From an uncultured Planctomycetaceae bacterium (lineage in GTDB: Bacteria > Planctomycetota > Planctomycetia > Planctomycetales > Planctomycetaceae), in NCBI GenBank assembly GCA_963813715.1, contig CAWFAK010000017.1, forward strand, positions 224,001 to 288,000: a DNA stretch of 64,000 nt, written 5' to 3'. The translations under genes and the position numbers were made by a program. Below, piece after piece: positions 12,283 through 22,885 of the stretch (positions are counted from its first letter, which is position 1; each line of letters opens with the position of its first letter). The notes below the pieces were generated by a model that saw only the letters and a program-made list of their open reading frames with translations, did no database searches and was not told the DNA's origin.

Positions 12283-12538
12283 CCAGCGGAACGCCTCGGG
12301 TGGCTGGACTGTGCTCTAGTCGTGGTATCTCATCCGATTTTCGTGAAGCCCAGAAATGGACCGACCAGTGCTGCCCTGATAGGCACCGGAAACTCATGCA
12401 GCCTTGGGGCACCCCCCCGGAAGAACTTGACCGACGGCGATGGCTTCAATCCGAGACGAACTGTGATATGTTCATACGAGGCTGCGGGTCGCTTGTTCCG
12501 CAGCGATGGCTACACGCCGACGAAGAGGGGACGAGGCC

Positions 12539-13225
12539 ATGATCCGACGAGTTATTGCCATCCGGACCCTAATCATTGCGTTTCTGGTGCTGTTACTCGT
12601 TCCGGCGACAATGGCCTGCGCCGACGAACCCAGTCCAAACCTGACGGATGAGGAATTCGCCGAACTCATCAAATCGCACGATCACTCGCTGAACATGCTG
12701 CTCGGTCTCATCAGCGGCCTCAGCGACGAGCAATGGACCTTCAAGCAAAACGCCAAGCGCTGGTCCGTGGGCGAGTGTACGGAACACATTGTGCGATCCG
12801 AACGCGCTCTCTTCCAAAACGCGATGCAAGCGATGAAGAATCCGCCTGACCCGGACTGGTACGCGCGTACCAAAGGCAAAGCGGATTTCATTCGCAGGGT
12901 CATCCCAAACCGGAACCCGGGTGGCGTCGGCGGCGCGCAGGCACCGCTGGAAATCCAGCCGACGGAGAAATGGGGCCGCGCGAAGGCGATCGAAGAGTTC
13001 TACAAGATCCACGGCGAGGTGCGTGCGTATCTCGAAACCATGCCGCGCGAAATCAAAAACCATACCGTCCGGCATCCCTTCCCAATCTTCAACTGGCTGA
13101 ACGCACACGATTGGCTGCTGTACTTGCCTTTGCACACAGAACGTCACTGCAAGCAGATTATCGAAGTGCAGGCCGATCCAAGATATCCGAAAAAAGCGGC
13201 CTCGGTGGCGGCTGCGGCGAAATAA
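12539..13225 (+). CDS. Exported DinB/YfiT family protein
   Basis: Signal peptide; WSVGECTEH...HTERH metal-binding His triad. Confidence 0.85.
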   Translation: MIRRVIAIRTLIIAFLVLLLVPATMACADEPSPNLTDEEFAELIKSHDHSLNMLLGLISGLSDEQWTFKQNAKRWSVGECTEHIVRSERALFQNAMQAMKNPPDPDWYARTKGKADFIRRVIPNRNPGGVGGAQAPLEIQPTEKWGRAKAIEEFYKIHGEVRAYLETMPREIKNHTVRHPFPIFNWLNAHDWLLYLPLHTERHCKQIIEVQADPRYPKKAASVAAAAK

Positions 13226-13330
13226 TTAGCCTTGCTTGACCAACACGGTCAATTGGGGCGACACTGCACGAATCAGTCGGCTGGCGTTGGTTGACAACCA
13301 GTTCCTCCCCTAACGCTTTGAGGAGACATC

Positions 13331-13883
13331 ATGAGCATGCTTCGCGTAATCGTCTTGGCGACTGTGGTCGGCTTGTTGAGCACCGTTCCCGCTGACGCGC
13401 AACGAGCCCACGCGCAAGCGAGTCAGCCCTCACGAGACCGTGAGTGCCGTGATCGCAGGCAACGAGGTGAAGATCACCTACGGCCGGCCCTACTCCAAGA
13501 ATCCGCGCGGCACCGACATCCGAAAGATTTGGGGATCGCTGGTGCCCTACGGCAAAGCCTGGCGACTGGGCGCCGACGAGGCGACGACCATCGTGCTGCA
13601 AAAGGGGATCAAGATTGGCGACGCGGCGATTCCTGCCGGGACCTACACGCTGTACCTGATTCCCGAAGAGAATGGCGGCAAGCTGGCTTTCAGCAAGACC
13701 GTGGGTAAATGGGGGGTTCCCGTCGACCAGAAGAATGATCTGGTCCGTGTCGACGTCAAGAAAGAGCCGCTCTCGCCAGCGCTTGATCAATTGGCGATCG
13801 CCGTCCAGAAGGGCGACAATGGCGGCGTGCTGAAGTTCATGTGGGAAGACTCGCAGTACACTGTGAACTTCACCAACGAATAG
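13331..13883 (+). CDS. Secreted DUF2911 family protein; frameshift near 13405
   Basis: Signal peptide; ITYGRP...IWGSLVPYGKAWRLGADEAT...PAGTYTLY. Confidence 0.85.
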
Positions 13884-13944
13884 CGCGCCGATCTTGATCC
13901 GCCCAACCCCACCGACTCGTCGCAAGCAATCTGACAGTGCGCCT

Positions 13945-16473
13945 ATGCAATCCAGCTCTTCGACGACCGTCGGCATTCGCGCACGACTCCGGATTGCCGC
14001 TTGGACCGCCGTCGCGCTGATGCTTGTCGCGCTCGGCGCAGTCCAAGGCGGAATCGCCGCCCGCAAGCGCGGGAGCCGCGATCCTGGAAAAACTGCGTGC
14101 CTTTCAAGAGATGGGGAGCGTGCTGCACGTCGCCGCCCATCCCGACGATGAGAATACGCAGTTAATCACGTACTTGGCGCGGGGGCGGCGAGTCCGCACG
14201 GCCTATCTGTCGATTACGCGAGGCGACGGCGGGCAGAATGTGCTCGGCGGCGAATTCGGCCCGCAACTGGGGCTGATCCGTACGCACGAGCTTCTGGCCG
14301 CGCGGCGATTGGACGGGGGGAGACAGTTTTTTACGCGTGCGATCGACTTCGGTTTCTCAAAGGACCCCGAAGAGACGCTCAAGATCTGGGACGAGCAGGC
14401 GGTTCTGTCGGACGTCGTCCGCGTGATTCGCACATTCCGGCCCGATGTGATTGTGACTCGGTTCAGTCCGCAGGCCTCGCGCACGCATGGGCATCACACG
14501 GCCTCAGCGATTTTGGCCGTGGAGGCGTTCAAGCTCTCGGGCGACCGGACGGCGTTTCCCGATCAGCTCAAAGAACTGGAGCCTTGGCAGCCCAAGCGAA
14601 TACTGATGAACCGCGGCCTTGGTGGCGGTCGCGGCGGCGGAGAGGGCGCCGTGCAGCTCGACGTCGGCGGCACCGACGTGTTGCTGGGCGAGAGCTTCTC
14701 GACGATCGCATCGCGCAGTCGTGCGATGCACAAGAGCCAAGGGTTTGGCAATTTTGGAAGCGGCGGGCGCGGCGGCGGCAGCCGGCCGCGGACGGAGTCG
14801 TTTCAGCTCCTGGCCGGCGAACCGGCCAAAAAGGACATCTTCGACGGGATCGACGTGCAATGGACCCGCGTGCGCGGCGGTGCAGAGATCGGGAAACTGG
14901 TCAGCGAGGTGATCGCCAAGTTCAATCCGGCGCGATCCGGGCGCAAGCGTTCCCGATTTGTTGATTCTGCGCCGCAAGTTGACAGCTCTTGCGGACGAGC
15001 CGCTCGTTCGCGAAAAGCGTCGCGACTTCGACCAGATTCTACAGGCCTGCCTGGGCCTGGTCGTGGAGTCAACCTTGAGCACGGCCGAGGTCTCGCCTGG
15101 CGACTCCGTGACGATCGAGCATTCTGTCGTCCGCAAAGGCAAAGTGCCCGTCACTTGGCGGGGTGTTCGCTACCCGACTTTAAACAAGGAGCTGAAGCGG
15201 ACCGATCCGTTGACGTTAGACCAGGTCGTGAAGGTCACCGACCAGCAAACTTTGCCCGACGACATATCCGGTGAGCCAGCCCTATTGGCTTCGCGAGGTC
15301 CCAGGCGTCGGCGTGTATCGCGTGGCCGAGCCGAGCTTGATTGGCCAGCCCCTGGGGCCGCCTCCGCTTCTCGTGGAGCATGAATTTGAGGTCCAGGGGC
15401 AGACGTTCGTGGTGCCGATCGTGCCCACCGCCCGGGTGATCGAAAACGGAAAGCAGATCGAGCGTTCCCTCGAAGTGGTCCCGCCGGTGTTCCTCGGCTT
15501 CCCGTTCGAGGTAGCCCGTTTTGCACCGGGACAGAAGCGAAACGTGCAGGTCACCGTGTCCAGCAGTCGCCCCGGGGTTACCGGCGAGCTCACGTTGTCG
15601 GCACCAGCGGACTGGAAGGTGGCTCCCCGCTCGCAGAAGTTTCAGATCGACACGGGTTCCCAAGCCAGGTACACGTTCGAAGTGACGCCTCCGGCGCACG
15701 CCGCCTCGGCGTCGATCGTCGCCCAGGCCACGGTCGGCGGCCGCACCTACGACAACGGGCGCGTCGACATCCGTTATGATCACATCGGTCACCTCTTGTT
15801 GCAGCCGACCGCGCGGCTGACTGCCGCGTCTTTCGATCTGAACATTCGAGGGCGGAATGTCGGTTACGTCGAAGGCGCCGGCGATAGCGTCGCCGAATGT
15901 CTCGCGCAGATGGGTTACACGGTCAAGCCGCTCTCAGCCACGGATCTAACAAAAGAAGGTCTGCGCGGTCTGGATGCAGTCGTAATCGGCGTTCGCGCGT
16001 TCAACGTGCGCAAAGATCTGGGCAAGCACATGCCGGCCTTATTTGCGTTCGCCGAGGCGGGCGGAAATCTGATCGTGCAATACAACCGGCCCGAGGGCCT
16101 CAAGAGCGATCGATTCGCTCCGTACGACTTGGGTCTCTCGAGTCAGCGGGTGACCGACGAGCAGTCGCCGGTGACGTTTCTGGCTCCAGATCATCCGGCG
16201 CTCAACACGCCCAACAAAATCACGCGGGCCGATTTCGATGGGTGGGTGCAGGAGCGCGGGATCTATTTTCCGAATGAGTGGGATCAACACTTCAAGCCGA
16301 TCCTCGCGTTAAAAGACCCGAACGAACCGCCGCTCGAAGGCGGGATTCTGATCGCGGCACACGGCCGCGGCAACGTGATTTACACCAGCCTGGCCTGGTT
16401 TCGAGAGCTGCCGGCGGGTGTTCCCGGCGCTTACCGATTGTTTGCGAACCTTGTCTCGTTGGGCAAGGGCTGA
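13945..16473 (+). CDS. Secreted PIG-L/LmbE family deacetylase with NEW3-like Ig and C-terminal class I glutamine-amidotransferase-like domains; about 3 frameshifts
   Basis: AHPDDE, TRGDGGQN, HGHH; later frames give WVQERG and FRELPAGVPGAYRLFANL. Confidence 0.88.
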
Positions 16474-16498
16474 AAATCCTCCAGCGCGGACGGGCGCC

Positions 16499-16654
16499 AT
16501 GGCCGAACGGACTGCCGACTCGTCGGACTCCGCAGAGAACGAAGCGACCCGGCTGCCTGTCTTCCGCACCTGGCCCGCGGTTTATGCCTTCGTCGTGGCC
16601 ACGTTCGTCCTCTGGGTCACGCTCCTCGCAGTCTTGGCGAGGACGTTCTCGTGA
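16499..16654 (+). CDS. Small single-TM protein preceding the symporter (accessory subunit-like)
   Basis: Hydrophobic WPAVYAFVVATFVLWVTLL; GTGA overlap with the symporter start. Confidence 0.65.
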   Translation: MAERTADSSDSAENEATRLPVFRTWPAVYAFVVATFVLWVTLLAVLARTFS

Positions 16655-18368
16655 ACGGAATCGATTGGGCTGTCCTGCTCATCACGATTCTGGGCATTGC
16701 TGGCTACGGGATCTGGGGCACACGCGGCCAGCGCAGTCTTCGAACTTTTTTGCACGGCTCAGGCGAAACGAGCTGGATGGTGATTGGCCTCTCGGTGATG
16801 GCCACGCAGGCCAGCGCCATCACGTTTCTCTCCACTCCCGGGCAAGGATATGAGAGTGGACTGGGGTTCGTGCAGAACTACTTTGGAGCCCCGTTCGCGT
16901 TGATCATCATCTCTGTCGTGTTTTTGCCGATCTATCGCCGTCTGAATGTCGACACCGCGTATGAATTCCTGGGGAGCCGCTTTGATTCCAAGACGCGCCT
17001 GCTCGGGGCGGCCTTGTTTCTTCTGCAGCGCGGGCTGGGCGCCGGGATCACAATCTACGCTCCGGCCATCGTGCTCTCGACGGTCATGGGTTGGCGTCTG
17101 GACCTGACGATCATCGGCAGCGGATTGGTGGCGATCGCCTACACCGTTTCCGGGGGCAGCGCCGCGGTTAACCTGACGCAAAAGTACCAGATCGGCGTCA
17201 TCTTCATCGGCATGATCACGGCCTTTTTTGTTTTGGTGTCGAAGCTGCCCGGCGACGTTGGCTTCTCCGGTGCGCTGACCGTGGCCGGAGGTTTGAATAA
17301 GCTGGAAGGCGTCGACTTCTCGTTCGATGTCGGCAAGCGCTACACGTTCTGGTCTGGCCTGCTCGGTGGACTGTTTCTCGCTCTGTCGTACTTTGGCACG
17401 GACCAGTCGCAAGTGCAGCGTTATCTGTCGGGCGGATCACTGCGCGAAAGCCGCCTGGGCTTGATGTTCAACGCGGTCTGCAAGATTCCTATGCAGTTCT
17501 TCATCCTGCTGCTGGGGGTGATGCTGTTTGTTTTCTATCAGTTCGAGCCGCCGCCAATTTTTTTCAATCAAACGGCCTGGAACAACGCGATTGCGACTAA
17601 GTCGGGCGGCCAATTGCAATCACTGGCCCGGCAATACGAGTCCGAATGCGCTTCCACCAAGACCGCAATCACCCGCTGGCTGGCGCTGGGCCACAGCAGT
17701 AATCCCGCGGAGGCTGATGCTGCGCGAACCAACGCGCAAGCGGCTTACCAGCAGAGCCAAGCGACCCGAGCCGAGGCCAAACGCGCCCTGACAGCCGCCA
17801 CCCGCGCGCGTCTTCCAACGATGCCGACTACGTCTTCGTGACGTTTATTCTGCATCACTTGCCGCACGGCCTGATCGGCCTGCTGATTACCGTATTCTTG
17901 GCCGCGACGCTCTCGTCAAAGGCTGCCGAGCTGAATGCCCTGGGGTCGACGACAACCGTCGACCTGTATCGGCACATCATGACTCGCCAGGCCACGGAGG
18001 CGCACTACCTGAAGGCATCGCGATTTTTCACGGCCATGTGGGGGTTGATTGCGATTTGCTTTGCCCTGTTTGCAAACATGGCGGAAAACCTGATCCAGGC
18101 CGTGAACATCGTGGGCTCGATTTTCTACGGCGTGGTGCTGGGGATGTTTCTGGTCGCGTTCTTGATGCGATGGATTGGCGGGACAGCCGTCTTTTATGCG
18201 GCAATCGTGTCGCAGGTGGCGGTGCTCGTGCTCTACTTCACGATCCCCATCAGCTACCTTTGGTACAACGTGATTGGCTGTGCGATTTGTGTCGTTTTGA
18301 GCGCGTGCGTGCAGATTGGCCTCGGCCCGATTGATCGCGAGCCAACCCGCGGGGTTAACCCAACATGA
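16651..18368 (+). CDS. Sodium:solute symporter (SSS family); frameshift near 17805
   Basis: GLSVMATQASAITF, GTDQSQVQRYL, many TM helices. Confidence 0.92.
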
Positions 18369-19142
18369 GCGGGGAGCCCCTCATTTGCTTCGGCCAGCAA
18401 CCGTGCGGGTTCTTCCCACGCCGTTACCTCGTGGCGAAGATTCGGACCGCCCGGCGTTTGCAGGCGGAAATCGGGGGCAGAATTGTGTTTTTTTGTCACG
18501 ACTCCGATCACGATCCGCGCGAAACCAAGACCATCGTGCGCCACCGTCGCCTTGGCGAGCCGCTGCCCTTGAATTTCGCCTTCGCCAATAAGTGGCAGCG
18601 CAAATTCTCGCCGCTCTACGCCAAGCGAGTTCTGCCCGAGTGGCAAGCCAAAACGGCCATGACGCTGCATCCCTACGTGGAACCCTCTTTAGTCCAAGCG
18701 TTCGAGGAAACGCACGCCACGAACGTCGCCGATTTCTGCCTCGAGATGTACAAGCGGATGGGATTCTTGGAGGGAATGGACGATTGCGCGATCCAGCGAT
18801 CCGGCCTTCCGGGAAGCGGCCTGCGAAATCGACGACTACTATGTCGACGTGCCCTACGAGGGCGAAATTGTCCGCGCGCGTTACGTCAAAGGCGAACTGA
18901 TGCTCCACAAAGGGGGCGATGTCTATGAGACGTGCCCTCGTGTCCCTTTTGGCAAAAAGCAGATCAGCCCGGCGCGCGACACCCGCTTGAAATGGATGCA
19001 GTCGGTCGTGCAGTGCACGCACTATGTCGCGGGAGCAAGCGAACAGGACTATCTGCGTGTCGCGGACGCGCCCGAGGTAAACTTTGTACGCCGAGAGACG
19101 ATCGAGCGAGCAGATGAAGCCTATACCGACCTCCAACTCTGA
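18365..19142 (+). CDS. bshC: Short BshC-like protein (about 259 aa after repairing the frameshift near 18780)
   Basis: GQQ..K..A..L...VF...DHD..E and SP...R....Q....YVAG..E..Y match recalled BshC motifs; lies directly upstream of bshB1-bshA. Confidence 0.68.
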
Positions 19143-19850
19143 ACCGGGACCGCTCTTGGTCTTCGGTGCCCATCCGGACGATATCGAGTTCGGCTGCGGT
19201 GCCATCGTGGCCTTGGAGACCCGCGCTGGCCGCCGCGTTCACTTGGTCGTCTGTTCGAAAGGCGAAGCCGGCACGTATGGCAGCGCCGAACAGCGAGTGG
19301 CCGAAGCCCAGGCCGCGGCCAAAGTGTTGGGCGCGTCGCTCGAGTTCGTCGAGTTCGATGGCGACGCACATCTCGAGCTTCGCGCGGCTCACGCCATCAC
19401 GCTGGCCCGACGTGTGCGGGAGCACAAGCCCGACATCGTGTTGGCGCCGACAGTCGTCCAGAATCAGCACCCGGATCACTGGCGGCTGGGGACGCTGGTT
19501 CGCGATGCCGTGAGGTTGGCTCGCTACGGCGGCCTGGAAGAGCTGCGTGCGCTCGCGCCGCATCGAATCGAGCAATTGTTTTTCTACGCGCTCGGTGCCG
19601 AAGCCGAACCCCGCGATGCGATGCCAATCTTGGTCGATGTCTCGCCCCCGGAGGTCATCGCGACATGGACCGCCGCCATGCAGGCCCACGCCTCTCAGGT
19701 TCGAGGCGCGAGTACGTCGAGCTCCAATTGAGCCGAGCGCATTATCACGGGCTCCGAGCGGGTGTGAGCCACGCGATCCCGCTATTCCCAAACGATCCAA
19801 TCCTTTTGGATTCGTTGGCCGCAGTCGAGCGCGCCGCTCGTGTCTTTTGA
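19114..19850 (+). CDS. bshB1: Bacillithiol biosynthesis deacetylase BshB1 (PIG-L family); frameshift near 19710
   Basis: FGAHPDDIEFGCG, KGEAGTYGSAEQRVAEA, HPDH; adjacent to bshA. Confidence 0.85.
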
Positions 19851-19869
19851 TCAAGCAGAGCCAGCACAG

Positions 19870-21023
19870 ATGACACACCCGCGGCCGTTGAAAGTAGGCA
19901 TCGTCTGCTATCCGACTGTGGGCGGAAGCGGAATCTTGGCCGCAGCGCTCGGTGAAGAACTGGCCGCGCGCGGGCACGAAGTGCACTTCATTAGCTCAGA
20001 ACGGCCATTTCGATTTCCCGACCAGTCCGCACGTGTCCATTTCCATCCGGTTTCGGTCAATAAATACGAACTGTTTCGGTATCCCGACTACACGTTACCT
20101 CTGTCGGTGAAGATGGCCGAGGTTAGCCGAGACTACAGACTCGACGTGCTACACGCCCACTATGCCGTACCGCATGCCACGTCCGCGATTCTTGCTCGTT
20201 CAATGCTTCCACAGAATCTTCAGCCGCGTGTCGTGACCACTTTGCACGGCACGGACACTACGCTTTTGGGCGCGACGCGAACTACGGCCCGGCAATTCGA
20301 CACGCGCTCGACTGCTCGGACGCTGTTACGGCCGTTTCAGAGTTTCTCAAGCGGGAAACGCACCGACTGTTGGACGTGAGTCGCGAAGTCGAGGTGATCC
20401 ACAATTTCTATAAGCCTCGCCAACCAAGGCAATCTCGCGAGGCGGTCCGCAACGAATTAGGAATCGCGAATGGCCAGGCACTGTTGCTGCACAGTTCGAA
20501 CTTGCGAAGTCTTAAACGCGTCGACCTGTTACTTGCCGCTGTCGCCGCGATCCGCCCGCGCGAGTCGTTCAAGCTGATGATCTTGGCCGGCGAGGATTTT
20601 TCGCCCTTCACGAGCGAAGTACTGCGCCTGGGGCTGCAAGACCAGGTGATCGTGTTAGACAGAGTCAAGGACATCGAGGAATACCTCCAGGCCGCCGATC
20701 TGAATCTGGTCACATCGGAAAGCGAGAGTTTTTGTCTCAGTATTCTTGAGGCCATGTGTTTCGGGTGTCCGAGTGTGGCCATGCGCGTTGGCGGCATTCC
20801 TGAAGTCATCGACGACAATCGATCCGGCCAACTTGTCCCCTTTGGCGAAGTGGCGGAATTCGCCACAACGGTCGAGGCACTTATTCGCGACACGCAACGG
20901 CGATTGGAGTTCGGCCAAGCTGGCAAGGCGATCGCCCAGGAGCGATTCTCAGCAGAAAGGATCGTGCCGAAATACGAATCGCTCTATTACCGCATCTGTC
21001 CCGTGACGAAGAACAACGCATGA
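19870..21023 (+). CDS. bshA: N-acetyl-alpha-D-glucosaminyl L-malate synthase BshA (GT4); frameshift near 20275
   Basis: IVCYPTVGGSG, LHAHYAVPHA, VTTLHGTD, ESFCLSILEAM. Confidence 0.92.
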
Positions 21024-21530: not shown

Positions 21531-22885
21531 TCAATTCCTTAGCGACGCAATCAAATCGTGCGCGGCTTGGATTCCGCTTTCGATCGCTCCATGGACGGAG
21601 GCGACGTTGCCTGGCTTGTCTTTGACGCCAACGGCTTCGCCGGCGAAGAACAAGGTGTCGGCCACCGGCTTGCCGAGAGCTTCCCTGGCATCCGGGAACG
21701 TGTCGTCCGGGAGTGCAGAGTAGCCGCTGCGGCTGTAAGGATCGTCGTGCCACACGCGCCACTCGGCGCGCACGAAGAGATCACGGATCCGCTCGTTCCG
21801 GAACATGTGGACGAGTTGATTGATGATCGCTTGTGGCGGGTCGGGGTGGTGTCCGAAACGATCGGCCGCATCGCCACCCACAAGGTGTGTGAGCAGGTGC
21901 CGTCGCCCGCGGCGTCGCCAGAGAGAAGTCGGCCAGTGCAATTGTGAGTCGAGGGCGCTCGCCAGAAATGCCATCCCCTCGGGCCAGAACGACTTGCCGC
22001 GGTGCAGGGGCGAAAGCTCGTGACCATTTTGAACGCTTTGCCCGCACGCAACGCGTCGATCGCCTCAGCCTTCGACGAGGGGAGCGGATCGTCGAAGATC
22101 ACATCGCCTTGCTGGAGCACTCCTAGTGGCAACGTCACGAGGACCGCACGGGATTGGAGCTTCAGGTTGCGGGCGAACACGCTGGCGCTGCCGGGTTCCC
22201 ATTCAATTCGGTGAACGGGCCGGTTGAGACGGATGTCGAGGCTTGCCTCCTCCGAGGCGCGGTGAAGCAGGGCCGAGTAGCCTTGGTCCACGTGGAAGTT
22301 TGCTTCAAAACCGGTGACATCGGGTTCAAGCCAGCCTTCGAGTGTGAGTACCGTCGGTTCGACGGAATGATCGTTCTTGATGAGCTGCTCGATGTATCGG
22401 CGCGTGACGGCCGAACGAGCCAGAATCTCGGCGCCCTCAGGTGTGCCGAGAAACACGGGAAGGGGTGCGGCTCCCCCACCCGCGCGTCGGAAACGCTCCG
22501 CCAATCGGCGCAGTTCATGCAGCAACAGTTGTGGCGGCCGAGGCAATTCGGAGTCTGGGACAAGCTGGCCGTCAAACCAGGAGTAAGTCTCGCCCACGTG
22601 GGGAACCAAAGTCAGGCCGTATTCGACGCTGAGCTGATGAACGATGTTGCTTTCGCCGTGAACAAATTCAGCCCCGAGCTCGATGGGGTGACGGGCGAGG
22701 GAGCGCCGGGTGAAAATGCGGCCTCCGATACGATTGCGAGCCTCCACGCAGATCGCCGTAAGTCCGCAGCGTAGCAGCTCGCGCATGGCGAACACGCCGG
22801 CGGCTCCTGCGCCGATGACGATGACATCGGCACGAACCGGCAGTGCGCGTTGACGAGGTCGATCAGGCGTTGAAGATTGCTTCAT
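21531..22885 (-). CDS. Flavin monoamine oxidase family protein; frameshift near 22000
   Basis: IGAGAAG, EARNRIGGRI, ELGAEFVHG; second frame has W..DPYSRSGYS, LFFAGEA, VHGAIESG. Confidence 0.9.

Follow-up and report, generated by a model that had tools for sequence, protein, structure and literature searches.

Can a protein of half the usual length complete the synthesis of bacillithiol? The question is raised by a gene of 258 codons in a 64,000-nucleotide stretch of DNA from an uncultured Planctomycetaceae bacterium (hereafter the window, to which the coordinates of the locus refer; source genome G000, 83% complete). The usual last enzyme, BshC, is required in vivo for bacillithiol, and GlcN-Mal accumulates without it. 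The canonical protein is a dimer in solution and has a second, non-canonical ADP pocket. The first-pass annotation had regarded the short gene as a half-size BshC in a bshC-bshB1-bshA operon. The locus contains the following features:

12506..13225, forward strand: DinB_2/S-transferase-like protein (PF12867, E 1e-16; MST, E 9e-4) with a signal-peptide-like N-terminus
13331..13883, forward strand: DUF2911 protein (PF11138; signal-peptide-like start in a relative; indel near 13407)
13894..16473, forward strand: large PIG-L/LmbE-type hydrolase (PF02585; indels near 14031, 14933 and 15270)
16418..16654, forward strand: small ORF, C-terminus hydrophobic, immediately preceding the symporter gene (from the ORF list only)
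16651..18368, forward strand: sodium:solute symporter (PF00474/TIGR00813; stop overlapping the start of the short gene, ATGA; indel near 17800)
18365..19142, forward strand: short BshC-like gene (258 aa; one extra base near 18780-18783)
19114..19850, forward strand: BshB1-like PIG-L deacetylase (PF02585; start within the tail of the short gene; indel near 19705)
19870..21023, forward strand: BshA glycosyltransferase (both halves best match TIGR03999; indel near 20267-20270)
21551-22885, reverse strand: flavin amine oxidase gene, converging on the end of the operon

The short gene extends from an ATG at 18365 to a TGA ending at 19142, according to the ORF list and its translations. Its first frame, up to about 18781, carries GQQ, K and DSDHD..E, and its second, from 18783, carries ISP.R...R..WMQ and YV.G..E..Y. 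All the motifs quoted in the first-pass annotation are present in these frames. Its repair of one frameshift also stands, except that the joined protein has 258 residues and not about 259. The overlap with bshB1 is 29 nt long. Scans of Pfam and NCBIfam gave no significant match for the gene or its family, and a sequence search of the PDB with the family profile gave nothing meaningful.

We first asked how the homologs of this gene look. A search with the N-terminal 138 residues matched 5,773 of 5,782 candidate clusters (102-328 aa). The top 120 clusters listed are mostly 253-262 aa long and are nameless or labelled 'hypothetical protein', which is the label that had been expected from automated annotation. 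An exhaustive profile search retrieved 256 family representatives at 50% identity, and none of the 150 listed has the length of canonical BshC (the longest listed has 475 aa). Among longer proteins we found 13 matches (seven with a symporter, four PIG-L, one GT4 and one domainless), none of them with a BshC domain, although blanks among long proteins are weak evidence with the search used. The eight that were inspected resemble read-through or fusion with neighbour genes. Hence, the possibility raised at the outset, that the homologs would be full length and this copy just truncated, is contradicted by homologs of natively about 258 aa. We also rejected a truncated or split bshC on the native frame lengths, the lack of a BshC domain in these 13 longer matches and the lack of a separate coil gene in five genomes (see below). 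The closest GTDB relatives (90-92% identical) are labelled Planctomycetaceae. Tree labels are available for 78 of the best 80 GTDB loci, with 54 Verrucomicrobiota, 15 Planctomycetota and few others, and one family homolog comes from an Aenigmatarchaeota MAG.

The predicted fold is that of BshC. We used the AF2 model of a relative, P0001, which is 94% identical to the window protein over the first 138 residues (pLDDT 95.4, pTM 0.92). Foldseek gave B. subtilis BshC (4WBD) as the top match (E 8e-10), and 4WBD also ranked first among 48,161 PDB representatives in VIA (Z 20.2, rmsd 2.8, 241 of 258 residues aligned), followed by class I LysRS (Z 14.4) and TyrRS (Z 9.8). The predicted model has a Rossmann core with connecting-peptide insertions as in 4WBD. 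This agrees with the earlier description of a stripped-down Rossmann-core BshC, and the lack of a structural match that would have spoken against it was not observed. Profiles point in the same direction. The alignment of the family with 19 canonical planctomycete BshCs by hhalign is collinear (probability 94, E 1e-7, 223 columns). Against a score of 63.5 for this alignment, none of 60 column shuffles went beyond 21.8 and none of 40 block shuffles beyond 32.5, and the reversed profile gave 18.1. The match exceeds chance. In the ESM Atlas, the nearest named clusters are those of PF10079 BshC (0.91). Yet the identity to BshC is only 14-15% and no HMM cut-off is reached. The best E-value is 0.0073 for TIGR03998 (weak matches in 8 of 58 members) and 0.022 for PF10079 (weak matches in 4 of 58), and the two halves of the window gene match neither model. 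Since it fails the HMM cut-offs and lacks the coiled coil that is part of known BshC (TIGR03998; PF10079 + PF24850), the short family is a new BshC-like variant and not a formal member of BshC.

What is missing is more than the coiled coil. The long helix that follows the core in BshC is absent from the P0001 model, and the frames have 253-268 aa against about 540 aa in BshC. The short protein also lacks the first ~80 residues of BshC, its connecting peptide is shorter and the QER motif is not recognisable. The position of the coil gap can be deduced from the aligned ranges of models of two different relatives. The whole P0001 model overlays residues 81-517 of 4WBD (241 residues), while a model of residues 1-244 of the close relative L001 overlays only 81-378 (227 residues). 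The last 14 residues thus reach, at least in part, the BshC segment beyond the coiled coil. The short protein therefore lacks the coil from its interior (in BshC, the part from residue 378 up to the final segment) and is not cut off at its C-terminus. The coiled coil PF24850 was not found elsewhere in the five genomes tested. The same tail moves the end of the LysRS overlay from residue 269 to 295, a stretch that we take to be the KMSKS region. This suggests that the BshC coil is possibly an insertion before the KMSKS-region loop.

The resemblance to BshC extends to individual residues. Of the 21 columns invariant in the 19 canonical sequences, 13 are kept in the short family, with the motifs in order (GQQ..K, DHD..E, R, G..E..Y and a final R): G10, Q12, K25, F43, D48, E53, G133, R170, R207, G223, E226, Y229 and R243. 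They correspond to G90, Q92, K105, F128, D134, E139, G226, R292, R334, G350, E353, Y356 and R377 of B. subtilis, as counted by hand from the 4WBD alignment with a two-residue offset consistent with the VIA ranges. The polar invariants are kept in nine of 11 cases (Q12, K25, D48, E53, R170, R207, E226, Y229, R243). Five invariants are replaced (Leu by R20, Pro by V41, Trp by C/Y44, Gln by M211 with Q212 adjacent, and Pro at position 216), and these replacements could mark a changed substrate. The other three fall in absent segments, including the glutamine of the C-terminal QER. The family has conserved positions of its own, namely C14, R20, H45, D46, the Q78-K87 segment, C125, D205, W210 and H219. 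Neither HIGH nor KMSKS appears in the consensus of 109 family sequences, and canonical BshC lacks both too. A catalytic role of Cys14 is disfavoured, as it is Asn or Ser in all five divergent homologs. Nor does bulk charge argue for a strongly basic tRNA-binding surface, with a median pI of 7.7 against 5.7 for the canonical core and a net charge of +1 against -6.

The genomic context is that of bacillithiol synthesis. Among the 80 GTDB loci, counting only those with sufficient flank, the short gene is followed by a bshB1-like gene in 73 of 76 and by bshA in 68 of 70. The similar-length homologs beside bshA and bshB1 that the operon reading had called for are therefore found. Upstream are the symporter (73/77), the large PIG-L (64/69) and the DUF2911 gene (59/63). 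The DinB_2/S-transferase-like gene is at the same place in the close planctomycete relatives L001, L004 and L005 (6-kb flanks hide others). Hydropathy of relatives indicates signal-like N-termini in the DinB-type, DUF2911 and large PIG-L proteins and none in the three bsh proteins. The conserved operon around the short gene extends beyond the bsh genes and also encodes exported proteins and the sodium:solute symporter. The genes are tightly joined, with the ATGA overlap between symporter and short gene in 65 of 73 loci and the ATG of bshB1 within the D250-E251 codons of the short gene (window 19113-19118) in 60 of 76. The Asp250 codon is GAT in 64 of 76 loci, against 439 of 1206 at other Asp codons. 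A catalytic role of D250/E251 is doubtful, since these codons hold the bshB1 start and the residues are not conserved in divergent homologs. Two RNA libraries yielded contigs across the operon, which does not prove that it is transcribed, and a scan for promoters and terminators gave no signal clearly exceeding shuffled controls.

Among the neighbours, the BshA assignment is backed by its HMM: intact relatives score 396 and 414 bits (TIGR03999 cut-off 273.7) and match BshA in the PDB with E ~1e-94, the cut-off is passed by all ten Verrucomicrobiota BshAs linked to the short gene, and the BshA family motifs are conserved in these operons. The BshB1-like protein scores 127 bits against TIGR04001, under the cut-off of 182.5 (111-133 bits for the window and its relatives), with BcZBP/BshB1 as best PDB matches. 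The linked BshB keeps the zinc-ligand motifs and Arg53, and it has Gln at the site of Arg109 of B. cereus BshB, which is important for substrate binding; BshBs linked to canonical planctomycete BshC also vary there. The large PIG-L resembles the Mca/Bca thiol S-conjugate amidases in its PIG-L domain, in its best NCBIfam match (Mca, TIGR03446) and in co-occurring with bacillithiol genes in both phyla tested. It differs from them in its length (~845 aa in relatives), signal-peptide-like start, extra C-terminal domains and score far under the Mca cut-off, and it has look-alikes in Bacteroidota and Acidobacteriota. DUF2911 is scarcely mentioned in the literature searched.

More distant loci show other arrangements. 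A divergent profile retrieved 80 metagenome loci. As next gene, 48 of them have bshA and 25 have bshB; six are too short and one has neither. In the P0333 subfamily (1123 members; loci L149-L198, e.g. L157:4992-6886), bshA directly follows the short gene and no bshB1 is present in the locus. One of the 80 loci lies on a contig that is archaeal by its Alba, RNase P protein, GatB and geranylgeranyl reductase genes and carries a 41%-identical homolog convergent with a BshB1-like gene of 155 bits (L148:5001-6513). There, a GNAT acetyltransferase gene lies upstream of the homolog, and bshA was not seen in the locus. This locus hints at a bacillithiol-type pathway in archaea. In planctomycetes with the canonical gene, bshC and bshA often share a strand, with bshC ~0.8 kb upstream, as in G102.

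We then analysed the distribution of the short gene against the other thiol genes. These genomes are related and incomplete MAGs, and the co-occurrence counts that follow overstate independence. Canonical BshC was found in none of 50 genomes with the short gene (from 50 of the 80 GTDB loci) and not in G000. Among 201 Verrucomicrobiota genomes, BshA occurs in 11, of which ten encode the short gene (one being the centre genome, picked for carrying it) and the eleventh encodes canonical BshC. None of the 201 has the short gene without BshA, and the large PIG-L is present in the same ten. In 200 other Planctomycetota (G092-G286) the short gene is absent, and BshA is found in 105, all with a canonical BshC match, which indicates that the pathway is common there too, in its ordinary form. 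The large PIG-L follows the pathway also in these bacteria: the planctomycetes other than G000 that encode it have a BshC match in 22 of 22 cases, against 0/84 without. Among relatives of G000, the short gene occurs in six of 11 genomes of the same genus and in none of 29 others. This patchy distribution is compatible with transfer, the direction of which the quick-mode tree does not establish. G002, of the same genus as G000, has two copies (C1:3038-3805 and C1:91259-92025), one of them frameshifted.

Fold, motifs, gene slot and distribution converge on one function: the short protein is probably a BshC-like enzyme without the coil, with the role of attaching cysteine to GlcN-malate. It would act in the cytoplasm, in the last step of bacillithiol synthesis. 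By family assignment, BshA would produce GlcNAc-malate and the overlapping BshB1-like deacetylase would free the amine to give GlcN-malate. The short protein would then join cysteine to this amine, yielding bacillithiol (Cys-GlcN-Mal) or a later-modified derivative. We favour amide formation at the Rossmann site with cysteine activated elsewhere, as Cys-tRNA(Cys) or a CysRS adenylate, because HIGH and KMSKS are lacking, as in BshC, while the nine shared polar residues are kept. We give this route about an even chance, a non-canonical ATP-dependent adenylation by the protein itself a somewhat smaller one, and any other route a small one. Passages of a review likewise assume, for BshC, an activated cysteine of unidentified nature (PMC5790435). 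The upstream genes suggest, more tentatively, an arm for conjugation, cleavage and re-uptake in the envelope. The exported S-transferase-like, DUF2911 and Mca-like PIG-L proteins, with the symporter, might serve detoxification and salvage by re-importing GlcN-malate. A bolder extension, which we consider rather unlikely, is that the family synthesises a novel aminoacyl-GlcN-malate, either a variant of bacillithiol or an analogue without a thiol, or that it feeds a product cycle in the envelope. In such a cycle, the secreted S-transferase-like and Mca-like proteins would conjugate and cleave the product after its export, and the symporter would bring it back.

The alternative that survives best, though clearly improbable, is that the protein occupies the same pathway slot but uses another acyl donor, placing a different amino acid or acyl group on GlcN-malate. 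The product would be a bacillithiol variant or a non-thiol metabolite, e.g. a solute or chelator for the co-encoded symporter and exported hydrolase. The replaced BshC invariants and the many family-specific conserved residues are in line with this, as is the Gln at BshB Arg109, but nine of the 11 polar invariants of BshC are kept. Of the two ideas in the first-pass annotation, that the protein could define the catalytic minimum or could ligate something other than Cys, the latter gained no positive evidence in our analysis. The second-closest fold, LysRS rather than CysRS, does fit a different donor. We also found no recognised bacillithiol redox partners: no YpdA in the ten Verrucomicrobiota genomes with the short gene, and no BrxA/B or BrxC in the five genomes tested. 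However, YpdA is missing in 37 of 40 canonical-BshC planctomycetes as well. Its absence therefore weighs little, and we dropped it as a sign of a non-thiol product given this control (present in 3/40). An alternative thiol pathway was not found in five genomes, with neither GshB nor MshC over cut-off. The large PIG-L also accompanies canonical BshC, and in the genus of G000 a thiol-S-transferase-like gene heads the operon. Both speak against a different donor.

It is less probable still that the protein is half an enzyme, i.e. a core needing a partner (BshB1, CysRS or an unrecognised substitute for the coil), or that it serves only salvage with the symporter module. The tight translational coupling on both sides of the gene fits a partnership. 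So do the few database proteins that fuse it to BshB, although these are possibly read-through errors, and passages of reviews suggest that BshC requires a missing protein or cofactor. But the modelled fold is that of an entire domain, with its tail lying over the post-coil segment of BshC, and no coiled-coil gene was detected elsewhere in five genomes. BshB1 as partner is at odds with short genes lacking an adjacent bshB1, and salvage alone is at odds with the archaeal homolog, which has no symporter module, and with the presence of BshA, the entry enzyme of de novo synthesis, in 10/10 Verrucomicrobiota genomes with the short gene.

The weakest reading is that assembly created the short gene or that it is a bshC pseudogene, truncated or in decay. 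This draws on the frameshift of the window copy and on two other broken MAG copies, is very improbable and is already refuted at the family level by the thousands of similar-length homologs, strong conservation and the intact frames described here. Among the best 80 of at least 525 GTDB loci, the frame is complete in 75 (74 with 253-268 aa and one with 344). The other five are L004 and L005, frameshifted at another site, and three without a complete frame. In the window, the extra base is missing from the short-read contigs of runs X1, X4 and X11 (a fourth run, X9, has zero depth at this site) and from the seven close-relative loci compared, and the frameshift is most likely an assembly error. 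All the long neighbouring genes carry similar single-base indels. Six of these interrupt bshA, bshB1, the symporter gene and the large PIG-L gene and are corrected by the same short-read contigs, which argues for assembly errors and not decay. The other broken genes of the window are probably assembly errors too. Over the 8.5 kb from 12506 to 21023, the short-read contigs correct no fewer than seven single-base indels in coding sequence. A search for a plasmid copy of the short gene found none.

Two other known enzymes help to place the cysteine-adding enzyme that we propose. The class I LysRS catalytic domain (1IRX) overlays it over 208-211 residues (Z 14.4-14.7; chain range 18-295 of 507), but the short protein lacks the anticodon-binding domain, HIGH and KMSKS, has 13-14% identity and occurs in a thiol-pathway context. 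The family occurs from Verrucomicrobia to archaea, and it may have kept an ancestral form, in which the catalytic domain of class I LysRS type stood bare and the coil of BshC had yet to be inserted. MshC, the CysRS-derived mycothiol ligase, catalyses an analogous step, the addition of cysteine to a glucosamine glycoside, with a class I synthetase-like fold, and adenylates cysteine itself. In contrast to MshC, none of 58 short-family members matches TIGR03447 (E up to 10) and the CysRS fold reaches only Z 8.0-8.3.

In the literature searched, which leaves most subscription journals outside its scope, we found no description of a short BshC and no later mechanistic paper on BshC. Passages of the 2015 and 2018 reviews describe the BshC reaction as unreconstituted and its dimer as formed by the coiled coil (PMC5790435, PMC4360819). 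The short family would offer a stripped-down enzyme with which to study this reaction. It permits a direct test of whether coil and dimer matter. Because it is naturally coil-less, it also reduces the candidates for catalytic residues to the roughly nine polar positions that it has in common with BshC at 15% identity. It also predicts a thiol in many soil Verrucomicrobia and possibly some archaea, and suggests that many soil Verrucomicrobia and some planctomycetes with the short gene make bacillithiol. According to the consulted parts of Hiras et al. 2018, a survey of finished genomes, no low-molecular-weight thiol is documented or predicted in Verrucomicrobia and Planctomycetes (PMC6282198). 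As far as their consulted parts tell, this survey and one of 2025 (PMC12719100) demanded BshC-like length and at least 25-30% identity, which would make the short family invisible to both. The canonical BshA and BshC in 105 of 200 Planctomycetota genomes also contrast with that listing, as consulted (PMC6282198). Some of these genomes contain a second TIGR03998 match in frames of 430-460 aa (G137:C2:109090-109575, and likewise in G115, G156, G173, G189, G204, G218 and G243). It is partial, spanning model positions ~365-528 only, and may be a divergent paralog of BshC or just a look-alike of the coiled coil.
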